DNA from: Candidatus Saccharimonadales bacterium
Lineage (GTDB): Bacteria > Patescibacteriota > Saccharimonadia > Saccharimonadales > JBGTLD01
NCBI GenBank assembly: GCA_041744275.1
Contig: JBGTLD010000026.1
Span: 1-50,553 of the forward strand
Reading direction: 5' to 3'
DNA length: 50,553 bases
Part shown: one piece after another, positions 13,349 through 30,365 of the stretch
How positions within the stretch are numbered: position 1 is the stretch's first letter
Layout: each line of letters begins with the position of its first letter
Notes under the pieces: generated by a model
What the model was told of the DNA's origin: nothing
The model's database searches: none
The model's input: only the letters and a program-made list of their open reading frames with translations
Program-made: the position numbers and the translations under genes

Positions 13349-13984
13349 ATGAAACAGTATAAAAATGTTCAATCAGGTTTCACAGTCGTAGAGCTTTTGA
13401 TTGCCACTACCGTATTTGGCGTAGTGTTGGTCATAGCGAGTACTGCTATCTTGGGGCTGAGTAGGCAGTATTACAAAGGCATCGTACAGACAAGAACACA
13501 AGAAGTTGCCCGCCAAATAAGTCAAGAGATTGCCAATAACATCAAGTTTTCTGTAACAAGTCCTACATTGGCATCAAACGGCAATGTACAGGTGCTCTGC
13601 GTATCGAATAGGAGGTACATGTACCGAACTGGCGTAAAACTAGGCGATCCAGGCGTACCAGCGGTGTTAGTACAAGACAGTGGTTGTGGAACAGCCATTC
13701 CCGCAACGCTTGCAGCTGCAGTTCCACCCGCTCGGCGTGAATTGATAGGGCAAAACATGCGCCTTGCTGAACTTCGTATTGATTCTAATGGTCCTCTATA
13801 CTCTGTAACCGTTAGGATTGCGTACGGTGATAATGATTTATTATGTAGTCCTGGCGCAGGTGATTGTGGCAGTGTGACAGCAACGGTAAACGCTGGTGCA
13901 GGCGATGTACAGTGCAAGGGTGGGAAGGGTGCTCAATTCTGCGCAACCGCAGAGACGAGCTTAACAGTTGTGAGAAGGCTGTAA
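13349..13984 (+). CDS. Minor type IV pilin (PilW-like)
   Basis: G|FTVVELLIA prepilin motif. Confidence 0.85.
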   Translation: MKQYKNVQSGFTVVELLIATTVFGVVLVIASTAILGLSRQYYKGIVQTRTQEVARQISQEIANNIKFSVTSPTLASNGNVQVLCVSNRRYMYRTGVKLGDPGVPAVLVQDSGCGTAIPATLAAAVPPARRELIGQNMRLAELRIDSNGPLYSVTVRIAYGDNDLLCSPGAGDCGSVTATVNAGAGDVQCKGGKGAQFCATAETSLTVVRRL

Positions 13985-13997
13985 AAGGGGTACTATA

Positions 13998-15062
13998 ATG
14001 CTAATGGATAAACCAAAACTACTGAGTGACCAATCTGGGTTAGGTGCGATAGTAATTGTATCAATTTTTGTATCAGTTGTTACGATGATAGTCTTAGGCT
14101 TTAGTACTGTTGTCAGAAGAGAGCAACGACAATCACTGGATCAGCAACTTAATTCGCAGGCACGGTTTGCAGCCGAATCAAAAATAAACGAGTTGTTAGC
14201 GCTCTATAGAGAAAACCCAGCCCATCCACTGTTTGCTACAAGTACACCTTTTGGCTCGTGTGGCGACGCCACCGGTGCCGTTGAGTCTTCCCCTGATTTT
14301 GATATTGATATTACCTGCGTGCAGATAAACAGAAGTCCTAACTCGCTCGAATTTTCAAATGTCTCAACTGAAGAGTCAACTGTTACATACATTCAGCCAG
14401 ATGCTACCCCAATAAACCGTATTGTTATCAGCTGGGATATACCGCCACCTAGTGCGAATCAACAGAGTACGTGCCGCACTGCAAGTTACGCGTCTGGTAA
14501 TATCTTTCCATCAACACTTGGTGGCAGTACTGAGGTTGGTATGTTGCGTTTTGACCTTGTGCCACTTGGGGGGTCACTTGATCGTCTTTCATTGAGCGAG
14601 TCGCAACTGTCTGGTGTGCTTATTCCTTCAACAACTGGTACGGAAACAATCACGTATAGCAGTGCGAATACCATTTCAACAAAACCTGTACTAGCAGGCA
14701 GGTGCTTTACTGGAGCCGGTCCATTTACCGTGTTTGGACAAGATGTGTACCGAGCGAGGGTAGTTATCAATGTACCAAATGCCAATACTCCCTATATGCT
14801 TAGGCTTAAGAGTATGTACAGACCAGTGCAAAGAGTTAAGGTTAATGGTGTAAATTCATCTAATGACTCTGTGCAACTTGCAAGAGAGCAAATTAGCGTA
14901 GAAGTAACCGCACGCTCTGCTGACGTTTTGTCTAAGGTGAATGCTCGGTTTGGGCAATTTTCTGCTGCTGCCGAGCTAATACCATCAAGTGCAGTTCATG
15001 TTATCAATGGCCTCTGTAAGGACATGACGACTGAACCGAACGGCACTCAGTCGAGTTGCTAG
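13998..15062 (+). CDS. PilX-like minor pilin
   Basis: QSG|LGAIVIV lacking Glu5, then QARFAAES typical of PilX N-termini. Confidence 0.75.
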   Translation: MLMDKPKLLSDQSGLGAIVIVSIFVSVVTMIVLGFSTVVRREQRQSLDQQLNSQARFAAESKINELLALYRENPAHPLFATSTPFGSCGDATGAVESSPDFDIDITCVQINRSPNSLEFSNVSTEESTVTYIQPDATPINRIVISWDIPPPSANQQSTCRTASYASGNIFPSTLGGSTEVGMLRFDLVPLGGSLDRLSLSESQLSGVLIPSTTGTETITYSSANTISTKPVLAGRCFTGAGPFTVFGQDVYRARVVINVPNANTPYMLRLKSMYRPVQRVKVNGVNSSNDSVQLAREQISVEVTARSADVLSKVNARFGQFSAAAELIPSSAVHVINGLCKDMTTEPNGTQSSC

Positions 15063-15982
15063 TCTTCTTTACGGTGGAATTTTTCGTGGATTGATTTGAG
15101 GTGTGGGTCGGTGACGTGAGTGTAAATCTGTGTAGTTGATATGTTGCTGTGGCCAAGCATGGCTTGTACTGAGCGCAAGTCAGCACCGTTCATGAGTAAA
15201 TCAGTCGCGAATGAGTGGCGTAGTGTGTGTGGGCTTACGTGCTTTGTGATGCCTGCGAGCAGGGCATAGCGGGCAACCATACGCTGTACACTTCGTGCAG
15301 TAAGCCGATGGAAATTACCAGATAAATCTACAGTTTTGCGGCCGCTGTAACGAATAAATAGTGGTTTGGTGTTGTCAGAACGTTTATCGATATATTTTTG
15401 TACCCACTCGGCTGCGTCGGGGCTTACAAATATAGGCCGGTCTTTCTGACCCTTACCACGAACCATAAACTCTCGGCGCTTGAGATTGATGTGGTCTTTA
15501 TCCAGTCCTACAAGTTCCGAAACACGGAGCCCAGAAGAAAACAGAAGCTCTAGGATGGCTCTATCACGCAAGCCTTGCTCGGTGTCTATATTAGGCTCTG
15601 CAAATAGCCGTGCAAGCTCTTCGGGGCCTAGAAACGTCACTTGTTTACGTACTGTTCGCGCAAGTTCTATCTTGTCGGCACTTATAACAGGCAAGTCACG
15701 CTTGGCGCAGTATTTCAAAAAACTGCGTAGCGCTATTAAGTGGTAGTTCTGTGTTGTTTTTTGTAGTTCATCGCTTGTGTTGGTGCCAAGCCTGTTAAGC
15801 CATAGCCGCCATTTGCGTACCATGTCTGGGTCAATATCACTGACGGTGATGTCGCCAGCAAAGTCGACGAGTCGGGTGAGGTAATGGTCGTAGTTGGCGA
15901 TGGTTTTTTGTGACCTGTTTTGCTCGATTTCTAAATATTCTAGAAAGTCTGTTTTTGTTTTTGAAAATAGTGGTGCGCTCAT
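15059..15982 (-). CDS. Tyrosine recombinase XerC/XerD family
   Basis: RDRAILELLFSSGLRVSEL, GKGQKDR, HTLRHSFAT, LGHSNISTTQIYTHV; start at ATG 15982, 6 nt after TACAAT. Confidence 0.93.
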   Translation of the reverse strand: MSAPLFSKTKTDFLEYLEIEQNRSQKTIANYDHYLTRLVDFAGDITVSDIDPDMVRKWRLWLNRLGTNTSDELQKTTQNYHLIALRSFLKYCAKRDLPVISADKIELARTVRKQVTFLGPEELARLFAEPNIDTEQGLRDRAILELLFSSGLRVSELVGLDKDHINLKRREFMVRGKGQKDRPIFVSPDAAEWVQKYIDKRSDNTKPLFIRYSGRKTVDLSGNFHRLTARSVQRMVARYALLAGITKHVSPHTLRHSFATDLLMNGADLRSVQAMLGHSNISTTQIYTHVTDPHLKSIHEKFHRKED

Positions 15983-16067
15983 GCATACATTGTACGACAT
16001 AAGCGGAAAAAGCCATGTGTAATCTGTTATACTAAATGAATACAAAAATAGTAGAAAGGAATGTAAC

Positions 16068-16601
16068 GTGGAGAAAACGTTAGTTGTACTGAAGCCTGAT
16101 GCTATACAACGTGGTGTGGCTGGTGAGATTGTTACACGATTTGAAAAAGCGGGCCTTAAAGTCATTGCGCTTAAAATGATTGAGCCGAACATAGATCACT
16201 ACTATGAGCACTATGAAACCATTGGACAGGTGATATCCCGCCGTGGCCAAAAGGTGTTTGATGATAACCTAGAATTTATGCAAGCAGGGCCTGTCGTTGC
16301 AATGATACTCGAAGGCGTAGAGGCTGTGTCGCTCGTACGGAAAATGGTTGGAGATACCGAGCCAAAATCATCGAGCCCAGGAACGATTCGCGGTGACTAC
16401 GCTCACATGAGTTATGGTCATGCAAATGATCACGGCGTCGGTATACCGAATTTAATCCATGCATCTGGTGATGTAGACGAAGCCAAGCTCGAAATAGCCC
16501 TCTGGTTTAGTATAGAAGAGCTACACAGCTATGAGACACTCCACGAGCGCTTTATGAACGCAGAATCTATGAAGCGTGCCCACAGTAATAAAAAGAAATA
16601 G
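16068..16601 (+). CDS. ndk: Nucleoside diphosphate kinase
   Basis: EKTLVVLKPDAIQRG, PGTIRGDY, NLIHASGD. Confidence 0.95.
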   Translation: MEKTLVVLKPDAIQRGVAGEIVTRFEKAGLKVIALKMIEPNIDHYYEHYETIGQVISRRGQKVFDDNLEFMQAGPVVAMILEGVEAVSLVRKMVGDTEPKSSSPGTIRGDYAHMSYGHANDHGVGIPNLIHASGDVDEAKLEIALWFSIEELHSYETLHERFMNAESMKRAHSNKKK

Positions 16602-16776: not shown

Positions 16777-16853
16777 GCCCCGGTAGCTCAACTGGATAGA
16801 GCAGATCCGTCCTAAGGATAAGGTTAGGGGTTCGACTCCCTTCCGGGGTACCA
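16777..16853 (+). tRNA. tRNA-Arg(CCT)
   Basis: Cloverleaf GCCCCGG...CCGGGGT-ACCA; anticodon loop GT-CCT-AA; TTCGACT T-loop. Confidence 0.93.
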
Positions 16854-21545: not shown

Positions 21546-23156
21546 GTGAAACGTATCGAAATCCCATACGTACATGAAAGAGGCCGAAGATATCGGTTCT
21601 TTGAAATGCTCCCTGGGCTGTTGAGCTGGTCGCTGTTATTACTGCCACTCACGCTGTCATTGATTGATCCTCGGCTTACCGTCACGTTCATCATCGCCTA
21701 TATGCTGCTTTGGTTTGTGAAGGCGGTGGGCTTAAATGTCCGTGCGATTCAAGGCTTCAAGAATATGGATCTTCATAAGTCTTTGCCATGGCAGCAAATG
21801 CTGAGCGAACTGAGCGAATCAAAAGTAGGACAGCCGCATAAGCACATACCATCGTGGCACTATGAGAACATTTTACGTGTTCAGGAAAATCCCACCCCTG
21901 TAGATCCAGACAATATTGTGCACGCAATCATCATCGCAACCTACAATGAGAGTAGGGAAGTGCTCGAGCCAACTGTTCAGTCAGTCATGAAGTCTGTCTA
22001 CGACATGAAAAAAGTTATTCTCGTGCTCGCATACGAAGAAAGAGGTGGGCCTCAGGTAGAAAAGCAAGCCAAGGAACTCATGCGTGAGTACAAAGATCAG
22101 TTCCAGCACACAATGGCCGTCAAGCATCCGAAGGATATGCCTGGAGAGGTGATTGGGAAGGGTGGTAACATCACATACGCTGGTCGTGAGTTGCAGAAAT
22201 ACGTAGAAAAGCAGGGTATTGATCCCTTGCACGTCATTGTGACCACGCTGGACGCCGACAACCGACCACACAAACACTATCTCAACGCGCTGAGTTATTT
22301 GTATTCAGTCACCCCAGACCCGCTTACAGTCTCGTACCAGCCGATACCGGTTTTTACGAACAATATATGGGACGCACCAGCACCAATGCGGGTGATAGCT
22401 ACAGGTAATACGTTCTGGAATGTCGTGCTTTCTATTCGCCCGCACATGATTCGTAATTTTTCATCGCATGCTCAGAGTTTGCAAACACTTATCGATACCG
22501 ATTACTGGAGTGTGCGGACTATTGTCGAGGACGGGCATCAGTTTTGGCGAACCTACTTTCGCTACGATGGCAACCACGAGGTGTATCCAATTTATCTGCC
22601 AATTTACCAGGATGCAGTACTGTCATCGACCTACGCAAAGACGTTAAAGGCGCAGTTTATACAGATACGGCGCTGGGCGTGGGGTGCATCGGATGTCGCG
22701 TATGTGCTAGAAAAGGGATACTTTACACCGAACAAACTTCCAAGGCTCGATTTATTGTTCAAGTTTTCTCGTCTTCTTGAGGGTCATGTGAGCTGGGCTA
22801 CCGCGCCGCTTATTCTGGCTTTTGCAGCGTTTATCCCAGTCCTTATAAATCCGCTCGATTTTGCATCGGTTCAGCTGCCAGAAATCGCAAGTCGTATCCA
22901 GAGGATTGCCCTTGGCGGTATTTTAATTACGCTGTTCTTGAGCCTTCGTTTGCTTCCACCAAAACCGGCGCGCTATAAAAAGCACCGTTCTGTGTTTATG
23001 GTGCTTCAATGGGTGTTGCTGCCTATAACCACAATCGGGTACAACAGCTTAGCGGCACTTAATTCCCAAACACGATTGATATTTGGGTGGTATCTCGGCA
23101 AGTTCGACGTCACAGACAAAGCCGTTATAACAGAAGACAAGCGTAGAATAACGTGA
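21546..23156 (+). CDS. Membrane-bound family 2 glycosyltransferase
   Basis: TYNES, KGGN, TTLDAD, VED and QIRRW (QxxRW) motifs with flanking TM helices. Confidence 0.88.
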   Translation: MKRIEIPYVHERGRRYRFFEMLPGLLSWSLLLLPLTLSLIDPRLTVTFIIAYMLLWFVKAVGLNVRAIQGFKNMDLHKSLPWQQMLSELSESKVGQPHKHIPSWHYENILRVQENPTPVDPDNIVHAIIIATYNESREVLEPTVQSVMKSVYDMKKVILVLAYEERGGPQVEKQAKELMREYKDQFQHTMAVKHPKDMPGEVIGKGGNITYAGRELQKYVEKQGIDPLHVIVTTLDADNRPHKHYLNALSYLYSVTPDPLTVSYQPIPVFTNNIWDAPAPMRVIATGNTFWNVVLSIRPHMIRNFSSHAQSLQTLIDTDYWSVRTIVEDGHQFWRTYFRYDGNHEVYPIYLPIYQDAVLSSTYAKTLKAQFIQIRRWAWGASDVAYVLEKGYFTPNKLPRLDLLFKFSRLLEGHVSWATAPLILAFAAFIPVLINPLDFASVQLPEIASRIQRIALGGILITLFLSLRLLPPKPARYKKHRSVFMVLQWVLLPITTIGYNSLAALNSQTRLIFGWYLGKFDVTDKAVITEDKRRIT

Positions 23157-23163
23157 GAGTTAG

Positions 23164-23562
23164 CTACAGCGGGTGATAGGCGGTGTAGTGCGTAAAGGCA
23201 ACCGAATCAAACCTCTTGAGTACCGCACGACACCCCACGATTACGTGTTCTCGGCTGATACTTCCCGATTGTTGCCGTAAAAGTTCTGTAATGATCGTGT
23301 CAACAAGTGCCGTAGCGTCGTCTAGGGCGGTTTTTCTATGCCGCAAGCTCTCATAAACGCTTATAAATAAAACATCGCGTGAAAACGGCTCTAAATCATG
23401 CAGAGCTTTGTACTTTATTGATTGTGAGAGGTCTACAGACTCAGTCGTGCTGAACAATGCACCGCACGACTGGCAGTGCCTACGCCGCCAAACACTATTG
23501 GTGCGTTTTTGTGGACGGGAATTCGTAACACGTGTTTCTGACTGACAATAAAGACAAACCAT
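23164..23562 (-). CDS. NrdR-like transcriptional regulator (Zn ribbon plus short ATP-cone-like region)
   Basis: MVCLYC..TRVTNSR..RRRHCQSCGALFSTTE; C-terminal LKRFDSVAFTHY. Confidence 0.75.
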   Translation of the reverse strand: MVCLYCQSETRVTNSRPQKRTNSVWRRRHCQSCGALFSTTESVDLSQSIKYKALHDLEPFSRDVLFISVYESLRHRKTALDDATALVDTIITELLRQQSGSISREHVIVGCRAVLKRFDSVAFTHYTAYHPL

Positions 23563-23720
23563 GACAACATATTGACATGACGCTATTATAAACACAAGTG
23601 GAAAACTTGTGCAGAGCTGTGGGAAACACTTGTTTTCACCTCTCAACTGGAGTTCTTACTCTGTAAATCTTGCAAAAGTGTAGTACTGCGTACATAAGAG
23701 GGGAATAAGCTAAAAAAATA

Positions 23721-23746
23721 AAAACACCGGCCTTATGACCGGTGTT
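23721..23746 (-). terminator. Intrinsic terminator of the small minus-strand ORF
   Basis: AACACCGG..CCGGTGTT hairpin with T run on the minus strand. Confidence 0.7.
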
Positions 23747-23764
23747 AATCACTCGCTGTATCTG

Positions 23765-23878
23765 TTACTTTGTAACAGTTCTGCGTGTGCGTCGTATGCG
23801 ACTGATTGATTTCGATGAAGGATGAAGCTCTTCGTAGAACAGCTTAAATCCTTCGAGCGAATTCTTTTTGGTACTCAA
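23765..23878 (-). CDS. 37-aa basic small protein MSTKKNSLEGFKLFYEELHPSSKSISRIRRTRRTVTK
   Basis: TTG start after GGGAGG SD, promoter upstream and terminator downstream. Confidence 0.6.
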   Translation of the reverse strand: MSTKKNSLEGFKLFYEELHPSSKSISRIRRTRRTVTK

Positions 23879-23908
23879 GTTTGAGCGCCTCCCAAAATTA
23901 ACTTCGCA

Positions 23909-23937
23909 ATCTTACCAGCCATTATCGATACTGTCAA
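23909..23937 (-). promoter_or_regulatory. Sigma70-type promoter
   Basis: TTGACA-17 bp-TAAGAT on the minus strand, with TG extension. Confidence 0.75.
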
Positions 23938-24459
23938 ATGAGAATTCTCACAATTGGTCCACCATAACAGATACAAAGAAATTAGAATAAACAGTCATCA
24001 CAAAATATTGTACGACGTCTTATCTTTCGCTCATTAGGTGTGACACGGAGTGGATACGTATGTATGAAAGGAATTTTATAAATGGAGTACATGTTGCTGA
24101 GATCAGGAATGTTTCGTGCAGATGCGCAGCCTAAGCTGATAGTCAGATACTGATGTAATTAAAGAATGCATTTTCACAATGCATCGTAGGGCCATTTAAA
24201 GTGAGATAACAACCATAATTATAAGAGTGTTCATGATGACTGACTCAAGTATTCATGAACTCATGAATTCCACATGGGTTTAATGATACGTAAAACAAAT
24301 GGTGTTACCGGGTTCGTTATCGCTGAGTGTATCTATGTATGCGTCCAAAGCCAGTTACTTCTTGATTATCATAGTACGCGTATCTGTAAGAATATATGTT
24401 CGTAATCAGTTAAGGACTACTCACTACCTCTGTCACTAAGGTTCGATCTGAATATAAAT

Positions 24460-24536
24460 TGGTGGGCAATATAGGATTCGAACCTATCACCTCCACAACG
24501 TCAATGTGGCGCTCTAGCCAAATGAGCTAATTGCCC
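24460..24536 (-). tRNA. tRNA-Val(GAC)
   Basis: Reverse complement GGGCAAT...CCACA-TT-GAC-GT-TGTGG...GGTTCGAATCC...ATTGCCC-ACCA. Confidence 0.95.
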
Positions 24537-24612
24537 AGAATCGGATCTAACAAGTCAGATTATACCTTGCGTAACACCGCTGTGCAAATACTTGTATCTG
24601 TTTATGACCCAT

Positions 24613-24652
24613 AATATTTCTATTTTACGCTATAGCTTGAAATAGAAATATT
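24613..24652. repeat. 40-bp near-perfect palindrome, copy 1 of the 42-bp repeat family
   Basis: AATATTTCTATTTTACGCTATAGCTTGAAATAGAAATATT; shares TACGCTATAGCTTGAAATAGAAATATTTT with 28228 onward. Confidence 0.9.
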
Positions 24653-24944
24653 TTATTTGGGCTTGGAAAAGAAAGGTATATCAGGAATGATATAAAAATA
24701 TAGTTAAGAATATTGTGTAAAAAACAATATAAAAGTACTAGCATCATACGGCTAGTATGCTATTATTAGTGCAGGTTGAGTTTTGGGAGAGGTTTTACCT
24801 CCCCTTTCCATGCACAATAAAACATCTTTGCGAGAGTGTTTTATTGTGCTTTTGTTTGTTTTGATTTGTGTGTATACTAATTACTAAGTTACTGAAAAAA
24901 GTATTCAGAAAACTAAAACAAACATCTTAAAACCAAAAGAAAAA

Positions 24945-27473
24945 ATGCTACAAAAATCGTTCTCGCAACGAATTAAATCTTTGTACAACCGGCAATTATT
25001 TTTAATAACCGGTGTCTTTTTATTTGTTTTGGTACCATTTATTACAGTTGTATATACATATACGCGCCCAAACCTTTCAACTGTCTCAGCCCAAGTTCCC
25101 GCCACTCTCAACTTCCAAGCTCGCCTTACCACTGGCGCTGGTGCCATCGTCCCCGATGGCACCTACAACGTAGAGTTCAAACTCTACGATGCCCTCACAG
25201 GTGGTACAAACCTCTGGACTGAAACCCGTCTCACTACAGACGCAGCTGCCTTGCGAGTTGTTGTCCGTGCCGGCTACCTCAGCGTTTACCTTGGTGACAA
25301 GACTCCGTTCGGTAGTATCAACTTCGGACAACAACTCTACCTCACCATGAACATTGGTGGTACAGCTGTAACCCCAACCTGGGACGGAGAGATGACACCA
25401 CGACTACGACTCACCAGCGTTCCATATGCCTTCAACACCAACCAACTCAACGGCCGAACCAGTGACCAATTCGTCCAACTTGATCCAGGAGCTACTCCAC
25501 AAACCACTAACACTACCAACAGTGCTATTGCCGTGAACCAGCAGGGGACAGGGAATATACTGCAGTTGCAGAGTAATGGTAACAACGCCCTCTTACTCCA
25601 AGCCAACGGTAACCTGACCATTGACCCGAATGCAGGCACTGATCCAACTTTCTTTATCGATGCAGTCAACAATAGGGTCGGCATCGGCACTGCCACTCCC
25701 GTAGCCCGCCTCTCGCTCGCTGGTAGCGGCTACGGTAACGGACTTGTCTTCAATAATTCACTTAGTACTGCTATTGGCCTAGAAGGCACAAATATACTAT
25801 CTGTTCTCAATAGCAACACAGGAGGCTCCATACAGGTCGCAGCTCAAGACTTTTTCAGAGTCGTTACTAACAGTAGCGAACGTCTCCGTGTTACCCAAGC
25901 CGGCAACGTCGGCATCGGCACTGCCAGCCCTAATTATCCACTTCATGTTCAAAGGAACTTTACTAATACAAATAATACTCACCAGATAGTCGTAGACCCT
26001 ACTTATACCTTTAATACCAACGGTGGTTACTTTAACTCGGGTATACAGTCGTACACAACGCTTGCCGGCACGGCCAATAATACTTTCAATTCATTAGGTA
26101 TGTACGCAGCAATAGACAACAGAAATACTGGCACATCTGCCAATGTAATCGCCGGGGCGTTTGAGGTTTATAACTATGCAGCCAGTGGCACCATTACCAA
26201 GGCTACCGGTGTAAATGGCTTCGTTGGCAACTTTGCCGGCGGCACAATCCAGGATGCTTATGGTGTATGGGCAGGTGTAGATAATGCTTTGGGTACGATT
26301 AATAACGCCTATGGTGTTTATATAGACGGCATACAAGGCACAAATACCTGGGGTCTTTACCAAGCTGATGCTACTGCCGATAACTACTTTGCTGGCAACG
26401 TTGGCATCGGCACTGCCACCCCAGACTTCAAGCTCGACGTCCGAGGCACCACACTCCTCTCGACTGGTGGTACTGCTCCTTTCGGGACTGCTTTTAACGA
26501 TCCAAGTACCGCTCTACTCCTCTATAGTGACTCTTCTTACTCTTATAATCTTATATTCGCTGACGGTTCAGCTGGCGGCTTTGTCGCCAATGATCTAACC
26601 TTCGGCTTTAAAAACCCTTCAGGTATATTCCAGGACGCATTCAGTCTCCTTCAGGAAACAAATGACTCAAATAACGTCGCCACTCGTACCTTCAGTATCT
26701 TTGACCCTGTAGCCGGCGCAAGACGCCTCAGAGTACGAGCAAATGGTAATATCGGCATTGGTGCTGGCGCCGTTACAACTACTCCAATCCCGAGTGTCCT
26801 GGCTGTTAGCGAAGGCCGGATAGGTGAATACATCACTACCCTTAGGAACACCAGTGCGACTGGTAACGGCCTATTGGTAGAAACCCAAGGTAACGCCACC
26901 ACTAACTTCGCTCTTCAAGTCAGAACAAACATTGGGGGTACCCCAATCGATGCGTTTACAGTACGCAATGACGGCCGTGTTGGCACCGGCACCACCACCC
27001 CAGGAGCTCGACTACACGTACAAAACACGAGTGCTGCAACCGTTGGATCTATTATCCAGGGGGCGGCTAGTCAGACGGCAGATTTGTTGCAGATAAAAAA
27101 TAGTGCTGGCGCTAATCTGGTCGTGGTGAATGCTGCTGGAAATGTAACGATTACGAACAATCTGACAGTAAATGGCTCGTTCACCCTGGGCGCTTCTGGC
27201 ACCCCACTTACCCAAATGCGGGTGTATACGCCAACACTTAATCCAGGATCAGTACCAGCAAGCTCGGCTGTAGAGCAGACCTATACTGTTACTGGACTTG
27301 CAGTTGGTGATATCGTGACCATTAATAAGCCTTCGCAAACAGGCAACTGTATAATCGGGAACGTGCGAGTTAGTGCAACGGATACACTTGCAGTTACGTG
27401 GGCAAACCCAGGTGCAATTGTCGCTTGTGACCCACCTTCAGAAACGTACATAGTAATGGCAGTACGGTCATAG
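24945..27473 (+). CDS. Membrane-anchored fibre/adhesin-like surface protein with GNVGIGT repeats
   Basis: N-terminal TM helix, LNFQARL..DGTYNVEFKLYD domain, repeated (G/N)(N/R)VGIGT modules typical of trimeric beta-fibres. Confidence 0.8.
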   Translation: MLQKSFSQRIKSLYNRQLFLITGVFLFVLVPFITVVYTYTRPNLSTVSAQVPATLNFQARLTTGAGAIVPDGTYNVEFKLYDALTGGTNLWTETRLTTDAAALRVVVRAGYLSVYLGDKTPFGSINFGQQLYLTMNIGGTAVTPTWDGEMTPRLRLTSVPYAFNTNQLNGRTSDQFVQLDPGATPQTTNTTNSAIAVNQQGTGNILQLQSNGNNALLLQANGNLTIDPNAGTDPTFFIDAVNNRVGIGTATPVARLSLAGSGYGNGLVFNNSLSTAIGLEGTNILSVLNSNTGGSIQVAAQDFFRVVTNSSERLRVTQAGNVGIGTASPNYPLHVQRNFTNTNNTHQIVVDPTYTFNTNGGYFNSGIQSYTTLAGTANNTFNSLGMYAAIDNRNTGTSANVIAGAFEVYNYAASGTITKATGVNGFVGNFAGGTIQDAYGVWAGVDNALGTINNAYGVYIDGIQGTNTWGLYQADATADNYFAGNVGIGTATPDFKLDVRGTTLLSTGGTAPFGTAFNDPSTALLLYSDSSYSYNLIFADGSAGGFVANDLTFGFKNPSGIFQDAFSLLQETNDSNNVATRTFSIFDPVAGARRLRVRANGNIGIGAGAVTTTPIPSVLAVSEGRIGEYITTLRNTSATGNGLLVETQGNATTNFALQVRTNIGGTPIDAFTVRNDGRVGTGTTTPGARLHVQNTSAATVGSIIQGAASQTADLLQIKNSAGANLVVVNAAGNVTITNNLTVNGSFTLGASGTPLTQMRVYTPTLNPGSVPASSAVEQTYTVTGLAVGDIVTINKPSQTGNCIIGNVRVSATDTLAVTWANPGAIVACDPPSETYIVMAVRS

Positions 27474-27567
27474 TAAAAGTGTCATTTGGAATATATATGT
27501 AGATACAGGGCTTTAATCTCAGGTTAAATCCTTTCACTCCACAACTGTTCATTGCGTGGATCTCTAC

Positions 27568-27609
27568 AAATATTTCTATTTCAAGCTATAGCGTATAATA
27601 AAAATATAA
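27568..27609 (+). repeat. Left 42-bp inverted repeat flanking the PaaX/Cas2-like gene
   Basis: AAATATTTCTATTTCAAGCTATAGCGTATAATAAAAATATAA is the exact reverse complement of 28214-28255. Confidence 0.95.
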
Positions 27610-27641
27610 ATTCCGTACCTTATGAGCACGGAGGCTAACTA

Positions 27642-28214
27642 CTACTTGAGGTTTAGGTGGGCGAATTGACGAAATAGTGCTTGTTCGTTATTTATGAACG
27701 AAGTTTCTATATAGGTAATGTACGACTCAAGCTCGTGGCTTGACGCGATCGTCTCGATGATTTCTTTGCAAGGGAAGGGGTGCAGCCATACGCTGCGCTG
27801 CAGCTGATAACAGCCTAGTTCACGGAGCTTTGAAGTCAGTGCATCTCGCCCGGCCTTGTGCTTTTCAGGTATGTCGTAGAATACGATTCGCCACTGCTTG
27901 TCCCAGCAGTCTGGTTGGTCGATTGCGAGTTCGTCAATGCTCCGCTGCGTTAGCCGCTCCCGAGCCTTGTCTGTAATCTCTAGTCCATGCTCGTAGCTTC
28001 CACTTACAAGGCCGTTGCTACGCATATAGGTTGTGAGCCTTTTAAGTTCGCGCTGCTTTCCGCGATCATCGAGTTTTGAGAAGTAATCTCTCAGCGGCTT
28101 GTCGAGTAGCTGTAGTGCATTCGGAGTAACTAGCATCGTAGCCGCCAGGCCGCCCATAGCTGCAACCCGGAGTAATCCATCAACTATAGGCGATATTTTT
28201 GTGCTTTTTGGCAT
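27642..28214 (-). CDS. PaaX-like protein (wHTH-like N-part plus Cas2/VapD-like ferredoxin domain), 190 aa
   Basis: WDKQWRIVFYDIPEKHKAGRDALTSKLRELGCYQLQRSVW motif; start at ATG 28214 (MPKSTK). Confidence 0.8.
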   Translation of the reverse strand: MPKSTKISPIVDGLLRVAAMGGLAATMLVTPNALQLLDKPLRDYFSKLDDRGKQRELKRLTTYMRSNGLVSGSYEHGLEITDKARERLTQRSIDELAIDQPDCWDKQWRIVFYDIPEKHKAGRDALTSKLRELGCYQLQRSVWLHPFPCKEIIETIASSHELESYITYIETSFINNEQALFRQFAHLNLK

Positions 28215-28255
28215 TATATTTTTATTATACGCTATAGCTTGAAATAGAAATATTT
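28214..28255 (-). repeat. Right 42-bp inverted repeat, abutting the start codon
   Basis: Exact reverse complement of 27568-27609; contains TATAAT 9 nt before the ATG. Confidence 0.95.
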
Positions 28256-28320
28256 TTATTGATATCTGATAGAAGGCGGTGATGTTGCAGAAATCTGAGA
28301 GGTGTTGGTATACTTTATAC

Positions 28321-28485
28321 GAGTGCTGATGTAGATTCACTACCTATGGAGCTTCGCTGGCATAACTGATGCGTGCGTTATCGCGATTAGTACAAGTAAA
28401 AGATTTCGGTGGAACCGCCTGGGGTAATCCTTGGGCCCGAAACGCGCAATACATATCTTATTTGATATACATAAGCGCGTTTTTT
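28321..28485 (+). promoter_or_regulatory. T-box riboswitch leader of thrS (short Stem I)
   Basis: T-box motif TTTCGG-TGGAACC-GCC with downstream GCCCGAAA partner; competing terminator AAACGCGC..GCGCGTTTTTT; Thr codons ACT/ACC in the 5' stem-loop; TGgTATACT -10 upstream. Confidence 0.75.
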
Positions 28486-28520
28486 ATATTTATAACTACT
28501 ATAAACAAAGGTTACATACC

Positions 28521-30365
28521 ATGTCAGACAACACAGACAATTTACATGCGATGCGGCACAGCTTGGCACACATTATGGCAACTGCGGTAACGACGATTTG
28601 GCCAGAGGCCAAGCTTGGTGTAGGGCCAGTGGTAGAAAACGGTTTTTATTACGACATAGATTTGGGTGACGTGAGTATTTCGGAAGATGATTTTCCGAAG
28701 ATTGAAGCCGAAATGAAGCAGATCATAAAAGCAAAGCAGGCATTTGAGAGAAGTGAAATGGCGGTTGATACAGCAATTGCCTGGGCAAAAGATTCTAACC
28801 AGCCGTATAAAGAAGAGCTACTCAATGACTTGAAGCGTGCTGGCACGACAATAGCAAAAGACTTAGATGCTCGCGAGCTCGGCACTATTACAGACGGTGA
28901 TAGCCAGGTAGAGAATGTGTCTTTCTATACGAACGGTAATTTTACTGACCTGTGCCGCGGTCCGCACGTTGAGCACACTGGCAAGGTAGGGGCGTTTAAG
29001 CTCATGCGAGTGGCCGGTGCATACTGGCGCGGGAATGAAAAGAATCCACAAATGCAGCGACTCTACGGCGTTGCGTTTGAAACTCCCAAGGAGTTACGGG
29101 CACACTTAGAGATGCTAGAAGAAGCTAAAAAGCGTGACCACCGCAAACTTGGTGTAGAGTTAGATTTATTTATATTTTCTGACATGGTAGGGAGTGGGCT
29201 TCCATTGTTTACGCCACGCGGAACTGTACTTCGTGAAGAATTATCAAACTACTCTAACGAGCTCCGTGAAGTTCAAGGCTTTCAAAAAGTTTGGGTACCT
29301 CACGTTACAAAGAAAGATTTATATGAAGCCTCTGGGCATTGGGCCAAATTTGGCGATGAACTTTTCCAGGTAAAGAGCCAAGAAACAAGTGACGAGCTGG
29401 TCATGAAACCTATGAACTGCCCGCACCACACACGTATTTATGCGAGCCAACAGCGTAGCTACCGAGATCTTCCGATACGTTATCTAGAAACGACGACAGT
29501 TTACCGAGACGAAAAATCTGGCGAGCTAGGTGGTTTGAGTCGGGTACGATCAATAACACAAGATGACAGTCACGTATTTTGTCGTGATGATCAAATAAAA
29601 GAAGAAATAGACAAGCTATTGCAGGCTGCTATAGATTTGTATAGCACTGTTGATATGAAGCTGAGAGTGAGACTGTCTTATCGCGATGACAGTGATGCAT
29701 ATTTGGGCGCAGAAGAACTATGGGAAAGCGCGCAGAAGCAGCTGAAGCAGGCAGTAGTTTCTAATGGTATGGACTATTTTGAAGAGGCTGGCGAAGCGGC
29801 ATTCTATGGACCAAAGATAGATTTCATGGCTACTGATGCAATTGGCCGAGAGCATCAAGTCGCGACAGTACAGCTAGATTTTGTACAGCCAGCTAGATTC
29901 GGGCTTGAATACACAGATGAACAAAACAATGCGATTCAACCTGTGATGATACACTGCGCGCTGCTCGGTTCAATCGAAAGGTTTTTGAGCGTATATATTG
30001 AGCATACAGCAGGGAAGTTTCCGGTATGGCTGGCACCTGAACAAGTACGGCTAATTACCGTGAACCAAGAGGAAAGTACCGTCTTGTTTGCAGAAGCTGC
30101 AAAGAAAAAGGCAAAAGAGCTAGGCTTGCGAGTAACTGCAGATAACTCAAACGAATCAGTTGGTAAAAAGATTCGGAACTCAGTGATGGATAAGGTGCCG
30201 TACACCGTGGTTATTGGCGAAAAAGAGATAGCTACAAATGAGCTTGTGCCGCGTGTGCGACCAGACCTAGAAGTCAGTACCGAGCACGACTCGATTAGTT
30301 TTGATAACTTCTTTGGGACAGTGGCAAATGAAGCCAAAGCGCGAGTCAGTAAGACCTCGCTGTAG
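28521..30365 (+). CDS. thrS: Threonyl-tRNA synthetase
   Basis: MRHSLAHIMA, DLCRGPHV, RDHRKLG, KPMNCPHH, AAFYGPKID; start at ATG 28521. Confidence 0.97.
   Translation: MSDNTDNLHAMRHSLAHIMATAVTTIWPEAKLGVGPVVENGFYYDIDLGDVSISEDDFPKIEAEMKQIIKAKQAFERSEMAVDTAIAWAKDSNQPYKEELLNDLKRAGTTIAKDLDARELGTITDGDSQVENVSFYTNGNFTDLCRGPHVEHTGKVGAFKLMRVAGAYWRGNEKNPQMQRLYGVAFETPKELRAHLEMLEEAKKRDHRKLGVELDLFIFSDMVGSGLPLFTPRGTVLREELSNYSNELREVQGFQKVWVPHVTKKDLYEASGHWAKFGDELFQVKSQETSDELVMKPMNCPHHTRIYASQQRSYRDLPIRYLETTTVYRDEKSGELGGLSRVRSITQDDSHVFCRDDQIKEEIDKLLQAAIDLYSTVDMKLRVRLSYRDDSDAYLGAEELWESAQKQLKQAVVSNGMDYFEEAGEAAFYGPKIDFMATDAIGREHQVATVQLDFVQPARFGLEYTDEQNNAIQPVMIHCALLGSIERFLSVYIEHTAGKFPVWLAPEQVRLITVNQEESTVLFAEAAKKKAKELGLRVTADNSNESVGKKIRNSVMDKVPYTVVIGEKEIATNELVPRVRPDLEVSTEHDSISFDNFFGTVANEAKARVSKTSL

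Follow-up and report, generated by a model that had tools for sequence, protein, structure and literature searches.

What purpose is served by three copies of a long near-palindrome that lie around a small PaaX-like gene and a fibre-like gene in a Candidatus Saccharimonadales genome? The stretch of DNA analysed here, which we call the window, has 50,553 nucleotides (nt) and is contig C26 (JBGTLD010000026.1) of an assembly of 859,789 bases in 54 contigs that is 95.5% complete; all coordinates are those of the window. We weighed four readings of the repeats: operators of the neighbouring protein, borders of a unit that is gained and lost, hairpins, and sites of inversion or excision. The best-supported mechanism, to which we assign a probability of roughly 55%, is that all three are cognate operators of an autoregulated repressor encoded by the small gene (mini-PaaX), one of them being a solo site. 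The three near-palindromes, each of 40-50 nt, and the genes among them are listed below.

24613..24652, no strand: c1, the most symmetric 40-bp copy, a solo site separating the divergent tRNA-Val and fibre genes
24945..27473, plus strand: fibre-like open reading frame (ORF) of 842 amino acids (aa) whose N-terminus bears a membrane anchor; it lies between c1 and c2
27568..27607, no strand: c2, flanking mini-PaaX at its 3' end, within the spacer that separates this gene from the convergent fibre gene
27612..27632, minus strand: intrinsic-terminator-like hairpin of the mini-PaaX gene, just ahead of c2
27642..28214, minus strand: mini-PaaX gene, 190 aa, assigned by Pfam PF20803, an AlphaFold 2 (AF2) model and Foldseek
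28214..28255, no strand: c3, flank of the 5' end of the mini-PaaX gene, abutting its start codon (the A of the ATG is 28214)

The copy c1 is a genuine third copy of the palindrome that flanks the small PaaX/Cas2-like gene. The first-pass annotation of this DNA had placed a third, more symmetric 40-bp copy here, and c1 is indeed a palindrome of 20+20 nt with two mismatched pairs (90% complementary). The distances of about 80 bp to the 5' end of tRNA-Val and about 290 bp to the fibre gene measure 76 nt from the start of c1 and 292 nt from its end to the ATG of the 842-aa ORF. The orientations are also as described there: c1 repeats c3 in direct orientation (90% over 50 nt) with an identical run of 29 bases, and c2 is inverted with respect to c1 (40 nt, 95% complementary), hence the fibre gene lies between inverted sites. 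In addition, c2 is inverted relative to c3, with 94% complementarity over 50 nt to 28214-28263. A search of the window for a 22-nt core with at most three mismatches gave four matches, which represent the three sites (the first on both strands), against an expectation of 0.00 from 100 dinucleotide shuffles.

The repeat is rare in the genome as a whole. The core pattern recovered c1-c3 and two more copies, on contigs C15 and C30, and the reversed control pattern recovered none. The annotation had also proposed a genome-wide motif scan with a list of adjacent genes; a weight matrix made from ten half-sites, applied with a cut-off of 14 bits, yielded seven sites, namely c1, c2, c3, C15:9454, C30:5927, C30:4633 and C29:11153, and their neighbours have no function in common. 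The highest score belongs to c1 (62.6 bits), followed by c2 and c3 with 59.7 each. All seven sites are intergenic, and three of the seven belong to the tRNA-Val-thrS locus. Palindrome counts in three other genomes (G038, G027 and G047) were 3-4 each, made up of the flanking pair and one or two others.

Mini-PaaX, as modelled, is a winged helix fused to a Cas2-like PaaX_M domain. It matches PF20803 (PaaX_M, the Cas2-like middle domain) at 2e-21, with 76.3 bits against a cut-off of 24. PaaX_M is its sole Pfam family; the protein stops at residue 190, and no PaaX C-terminal domain (PaaX_C) is present in it. The AF2 model, built from 40 homologues, has a predicted local distance difference test (pLDDT) score of 90.1 and consists of helices, a two-strand wing and then a ferredoxin-type domain. 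Foldseek ranked E. coli PaaX (8a39) first, Rv0674 (3kfw) second and then Cas2 proteins, the Cas2 chains having probabilities of 0.95-0.99 and E values of 0.03-0.16, and the order by sequence profile was identical. For the N-terminal winged helix, no PaaX Pfam family matched at E ≤0.01, and the profile aligns weakly (E 0.041) to residues 58-171 of 8a39. The aligned stretch of 8a39 takes in the recognition helix, and the mini-PaaX model shows a helix and then the two-strand wing at residues 50-80.

An alignment (A1) of 40 of the 43 family ORFs, from which L014 and L021 (short) and L047 (very long branch) were excluded, has D114, S141 and W104 invariant throughout. The aspartate follows the first strand of the ferredoxin domain and is absent from the aligned stretch of E. 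coli PaaX. An aspartate after the first strand and a serine motif are hallmarks of Cas2, in which the aspartate is the catalytic residue. The family is large, with 4057 representatives of 50%-identity clusters at E ≤1e-10, and the nearest relative of mini-PaaX in a set of 5.8 billion proteins has 57% identity. Cas1 (PF01867) gave no match in this genome, at its 95.5% completeness, in a search whose control was positive in 7 of 14 reference genomes. No paa-type Pfam family was found among the 20 site-adjacent or nearby ORFs scanned, and no genome-wide search for paa genes was made. A prediction of a two-copy complex of mini-PaaX using A1 scored 0.11 against a mark of 0.42, a result that weighs neither for nor against a homodimer.

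That the repeats are operators is supported by the flanked layout of homologous loci, by the overlap of c3 with the promoter and start of the gene, and by a footprint-like pattern of conservation. Mini-PaaX has homologues in 8 of 41 genomes at the level of the order; across the class, 64 of 401 genomes and 44 of 187 genera have them, and no genome has more than five matches. For 43 homologous loci, the 270 nt ahead of the start codon were compared with the 270 nt past the stop codon (+1 for a match, -2 for a mismatch, threshold 16, 20 shuffles per locus). In 26 of them, the window locus included, the two flanks share an element of 17-43 nt, and the shuffles never scored above 13. The 17 loci without a shared element include the most distant homologues (L042-L049) and also L023, which scored 11 and in which a palindrome scan nevertheless detects one copy on each side. 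The shared element, a palindrome of about 30-48 bp, varies in sequence by lineage, and site and protein therefore change together at the level of the locus. The two copies of the flanking pair are inverted in 17 of the 26 loci and direct in nine, and the centre of the downstream palindrome lies 15-53 nt past the stop codon in 25.

The upstream copy stands very close to the start of the gene. The gene-facing arm of c3 carries a consensus -10 hexamer 9 nt before the mini-PaaX ATG. Of the 26 flanked loci, 11 have an in-frame ATG at a distance of 16-21 nt from the centre of their upstream palindrome, and many have a -10-like hexamer at positions 6-11 from that centre. Taken together, the distance of the ATG and the hexamer inside the palindrome indicate that the upstream palindrome would cover the promoter of an almost leaderless mRNA. 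In the window, c3 would span the mini-PaaX promoter from roughly -35 to +1 or the start codon.

To measure conservation within the sites, the half-sites (four per locus, 26 loci) were aligned on the centre of the palindrome, and for every position the fraction of loci with all four identical was taken. This fraction is 0.73-1.0 at positions 1-5, falls to 0.31-0.58 at positions 6-9, returns to 0.62-0.88 at positions 10-17 (with a peak at 13-14) and is ≤0.08 at positions 20-22. The loose positions 6-9 coincide with the location of the -10 hexamer. The site thus looks like three parts, a centre and two outer blocks, which resembles the footprint of a protein and not an evenly paired stem.

Under the operator reading, mini-PaaX would bind as a dimer across the palindrome of roughly 40 bp. 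Because c3 covers the gene's own promoter up to the start codon, protein bound there would stop its own synthesis, as E. coli PaaX does at the Px promoter. The copy c2 would be the second half of the family-wide layout; it may pair with another copy in DNA looping or stand in the way of the converging fibre transcript. As for c1, it would be a solo site, one of the seven in the genome, and the fibre gene would be enclosed mainly as the converging neighbour of the module.

The first-pass annotation had gone further, proposing an operator of the PaaX-like protein that controls a host-attachment protein. The first half of this proposal gains from the evidence above; the second half does not, since 292 nt separate c1 from the ATG of the fibre gene, a stretch that includes a terminator-like hairpin, and an enclosed neighbour recurs in only one of the 25 other flanked loci. 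That locus is L012, where a third copy encloses a gene for a 207-aa membrane protein; the loci reach about 1.5 kb to each side, which means that enclosure is judged for short neighbours, longer ones falling outside this reach. The enclosure of the fibre gene by two copies is probably no more than a consequence of its place next to a self-contained module, and control or repression of the gene through c1 and c2 is possible.

The distance from c1 to the fibre gene is one of several observations that weigh against operators as the full explanation. The neighbours of the seven sites (thrS, tRNA-Val, the fibre gene, an MgtE-like pair, an epimerase-like gene, a coiled-coil gene, a gene for a 173-aa membrane-anchored protein and metG/tatD) share no function, and the neighbours of the module are not conserved among the flanked loci. 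By mechanical ORF calls, the downstream neighbour is convergent with the mini-PaaX gene in 18 of 26 loci, and of 25 loci, 10 have both neighbours on the strand opposite to it and three have both on its own strand. The copy c2 and the solo copies G038:C17 and G318:C3 sit where two genes converge, and a repressor would have no promoter to act on there. At several loci, a change from one copy to the other has its mirror image in the opposite arm, which a dimer site does not demand; template-switch correction of near-palindromes could produce such mirrored changes. Covariation of protein and site is faint: a mutual-information scan of A1 (31 labelled rows) for a residue that tracks the palindrome centre returned only the most variable columns, and the agreement of the centre type with the protein tree is weak, with 16 changes where 300 label shuffles gave 16-22.

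A further observation concerns the presence and absence of the whole unit. This genome is the only member of its family among the genomes searched, and the comparisons come from relatives: in all three same-genus comparisons the palindrome-gene-palindrome unit is present in one genome and missing from the other within a conserved gene order, and gain and loss therefore affect the unit as one block, with the palindromes as its limits. Where L023 (genome G318) has 972 nt, genome G356 has 191 nt, and within these lies a solo palindrome of the same type whose outer flanks match those of both G318 copies. Between L029 and G318, 1331 nt correspond to 195 nt, and between L025 and G120 about 900 nt correspond to about 25-30 nt, without a palindrome. 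The solo palindrome at the empty site of G356 (G356:C1, about 2494-2534 of L062) appears to be orphaned, as a search of that genome at E ≤1e-10 gave no second homologue.

These comparisons give weight to a serious and partly overlapping rival, namely that palindrome, gene and palindrome form a cassette of gain and loss like those of repetitive extragenic palindromes (REP) and REP-associated tyrosine transposases (RAYT), with the palindromes as substrates for entry into and exit from the chromosome. Either the Cas2-like protein or the recombination machinery of the host would drive entry and exit. A solo copy such as c1 would then be a scar or a landing site instead of an operator, and whatever DNA two copies enclose, the fibre gene for instance, would be exchangeable in the same way; all of this is compatible with autoregulation. 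Besides the three present/absent comparisons, one of which left a solo palindrome behind, the patchy occurrence of the gene across genomes and genera, with up to five matches in one genome, speaks for it. So do its unconserved neighbours and frequent strand opposition to both of them, the solo copies between converging genes, a pair of sites on contig C30 that lie 1294 bp apart and enclose two genes, and the invariance in 40 sequences of the aspartate that is catalytic in Cas2. However, the genome has just seven copies, compared with tens to hundreds for REP; the Y1/HUH transposase family PF01797 has no match in this 95.5%-complete genome, and mini-PaaX itself does not match Y1_Tnp. Flanking pairs that are inverted in 17 loci and direct in nine are not uniform terminal inverted repeats, and conservation within the sites is block-wise instead of even along a stem. 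Moreover, repeat-mediated loss combined with ordinary horizontal transfer would yield the same pattern without dedicated mobility. We consider this cassette role a real possibility, albeit an unlikely one.

In its boldest form, this rival would have mini-PaaX, with its Cas2-type aspartate, cut or join DNA at the palindrome, and would amount to a gene-cassette system of ultra-small bacteria that has not been described before; we regard this as improbable. In such a system the unit could enter and leave solo palindromes, and genes enclosed by two copies, in this genome the one for the surface fibre, could be cargo that is carried along or exchanged. The annotation's alternative, recombination sites that permit inversion or excision of the adhesin cassette, finds no direct support here: for the fibre gene, the contigs show no alternative joint, and no recombinase is adjacent. 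In relatives, however, the mini-PaaX unit itself behaves as a palindrome-bounded indel, and the wider idea that these repeats mark exchangeable DNA therefore keeps some weight.

Much less credible is the view that the palindromes are RNA or DNA hairpins, bidirectional terminators or transcript stabilisers that act apart from the neighbouring protein. As DNA hairpins, c1 (-8.9 kcal/mol, z -6.0) and the C15 and C30 copies (-7.3 and -5.0 kcal/mol; z -3.4 and -4.1) fold well, some copies lie between converging genes, and the changes mirrored in both arms at several loci would suit a stem. But c2 (-1.8 kcal/mol, z -0.16) and c3 (-2.0 kcal/mol, z -0.07) fold no better than shuffles, which argues against a purely structural role. 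The mini-PaaX gene already has its terminator-like hairpin ahead of c2, c1 and c3 stand between divergent genes with nothing to terminate, and symmetry falls off 6-9 positions away from the centre. Nor would the hairpin view explain why each palindrome type is strictly paired with a protein gene of its own, and we hold it to be very unlikely.

We give hardly any credence to a phase-variation switch in which the copies serve as site-specific inversion or excision sites for the fibre (adhesin) gene: around that gene c1 forms an inverted pair with c2 and a direct pair with c3, and a tRNA gene is adjacent, but inverting the entire gene with its own upstream region would alter nothing obvious, the same palindrome type occurs at four other places without a fibre gene, no recombinase adjoins the repeats (the nearest, of the Xer type, is 8.4 kb off behind ordinary cellular genes), and contigs assembled from one DNA run contain no other junction at the copies, a weak point given that contigs drop rare variants. 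In that run, one contig spans c1 with both flanks as in the window, and others end inside c2 and c3, presumably because breaks are expected at repeats of this length.

15062-16192: tyrosine recombinase with Xer-type domains, the only one in the genome, 8.4 kb from c1

The genome has two serine recombinases, on contigs C34 and C6. The tyrosine recombinase gene is about 600 nt from tRNA-Arg(CCT) (16777-16853), and the ORF at 13349-13981 encodes a product with a pilin-type N-terminal methylation motif.

The remaining features of the locus concern the genes on either side of the sites.

24460..24536, minus strand: tRNA-Val (GAC)
24559..24588, minus strand: sigma-70-like promoter of tRNA-Val, with 10 of 12 consensus matches, between c1 and the tRNA
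24653..24944, plus strand: spacer or leader of 292 nt from c1 to the fibre ATG, with a long hairpin and then a U-run in the RNA fold
28431..30365, plus strand: thrS ORF, divergent from mini-PaaX and facing the outer arm of c3; identified as threonyl-tRNA synthetase from its translation, without a Pfam scan

The fibre ORF contains three repeats of a glycine-rich motif and matches no Pfam family. Homologues of its N-terminal domain adjoin mini-PaaX genes in L027 and L044, and another is encoded in this genome on contig C23, with no site nearby. The spacer upstream of the fibre ORF folds as RNA at -74.1 kcal/mol (z -4.58), and none of 200 shuffles was as stable; since its hairpin and U-run lie between c1 and the ATG, a transcript beginning in c1 would have to pass this structure. 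The spacer could be an attenuator-type leader or a small RNA. Compared with the spacers of L027, L044 and the C23 paralogue, it gave only chance-level matches of 10-15 nt. Beside the fibre gene, the pair of sites on contig C30 (C30:4633 and C30:5927, at about 190-230 and 1485-1525 of L005) bounds the second enclosed unit of the genome, with an epimerase-like gene and a gene for a 136-aa coiled-coil protein between them.

The centre of c1 would lie about 80 nt upstream of the tRNA-Val transcription start that its promoter predicts. Directly before c1, positions 24610-24612 are the reverse complement of ATG, the same three bases as the mini-PaaX start beside c3, and from this ATG a minus-strand frame of 21 codons runs into the tRNA-Val promoter. 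This may be a copied fragment of promoter plus start, or chance. An Rfam search of 23000-30000 and two distal loci at E ≤1 found no family other than tRNA, and no T-box before thrS. The roughly 260 nt before thrS (28256-28520) contain a short T-box-like motif, with no Rfam leader at that threshold. Between the NrdR-like gene and tRNA-Val, about 800 nt (23650-24459) hold no ORF of ≥50 aa (the longest has 46 aa) and no Rfam family at E ≤1; the gap is long for an 860-kb genome and may be a decayed gene or an undescribed RNA.

Ultra-small bacteria, the candidate phyla radiation (CPR), have very few recognisable regulators. If mini-PaaX is a repressor with the operators proposed here, the small regulon of each genome could be read straight from sequence, and it may include surface proteins for host attachment. 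If the unit also moves or mediates the exchange of flanked genes, it would be a new minimal mobile module derived from a relative of CRISPR Cas2. We found no published description of a palindrome-flanked mini-PaaX, including in searches that combined PaaX with Cas2, Saccharibacteria, Patescibacteria and candidate phyla radiation, and the titles and abstract openings of the literature on PaaX-like proteins contained none on CPR bacteria.

Among known systems, the best structural match is PaaX, the phenylacetyl-CoA-responsive repressor of E. coli and Pseudomonas (8a39, 3l09), which like the mini-PaaX model has a winged helix followed by a Cas2-like middle domain. Unlike PaaX, mini-PaaX is only 190 aa long, lacks the C-terminal ligand-binding domain and matches no N-terminal PaaX Pfam family; it retains the Cas2-type aspartate and serine motifs, the aspartate being absent from the aligned stretch of E. 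coli PaaX. According to a review (PMC9493321), the operator of E. coli PaaX reads TGATTC(N27)GAATCA, an inverted repeat of long span, and by hindering RNA polymerase the protein represses the promoter of its own gene. The operator and the mini-PaaX site are both long-span inverted repeats of the same scale and logic that differ in block spacing. The mini-PaaX site differs further in having a conserved centre besides its two outer blocks, and its gene lies between two sites of its own.

Cas2 resembles mini-PaaX in its ferredoxin-type fold, its aspartate after strand 1 and its serine motif. What sets mini-PaaX apart from it is the predicted fusion to a winged helix, the lack of a Cas1 match in the genome, and repeats that flank genes and not spacers. 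The REP/RAYT systems share with mini-PaaX a small gene flanked by copies of a palindrome, further solo copies in intergenic DNA and a lineage-specific palindrome. Mini-PaaX is not a Y1/HUH protein, however; its palindrome has 3-7 copies per genome in the four genomes counted, far from the high numbers of REP, and the upstream copy also serves as the promoter of the gene. Looping repressors (lambda CI at OL/OR, lac and gal) likewise have at least two operator copies, hundreds to thousands of bp apart, around the unit that they regulate. In the mini-PaaX module the enclosed unit is the gene of the repressor itself, tightly flanked, and looping is conjectural.

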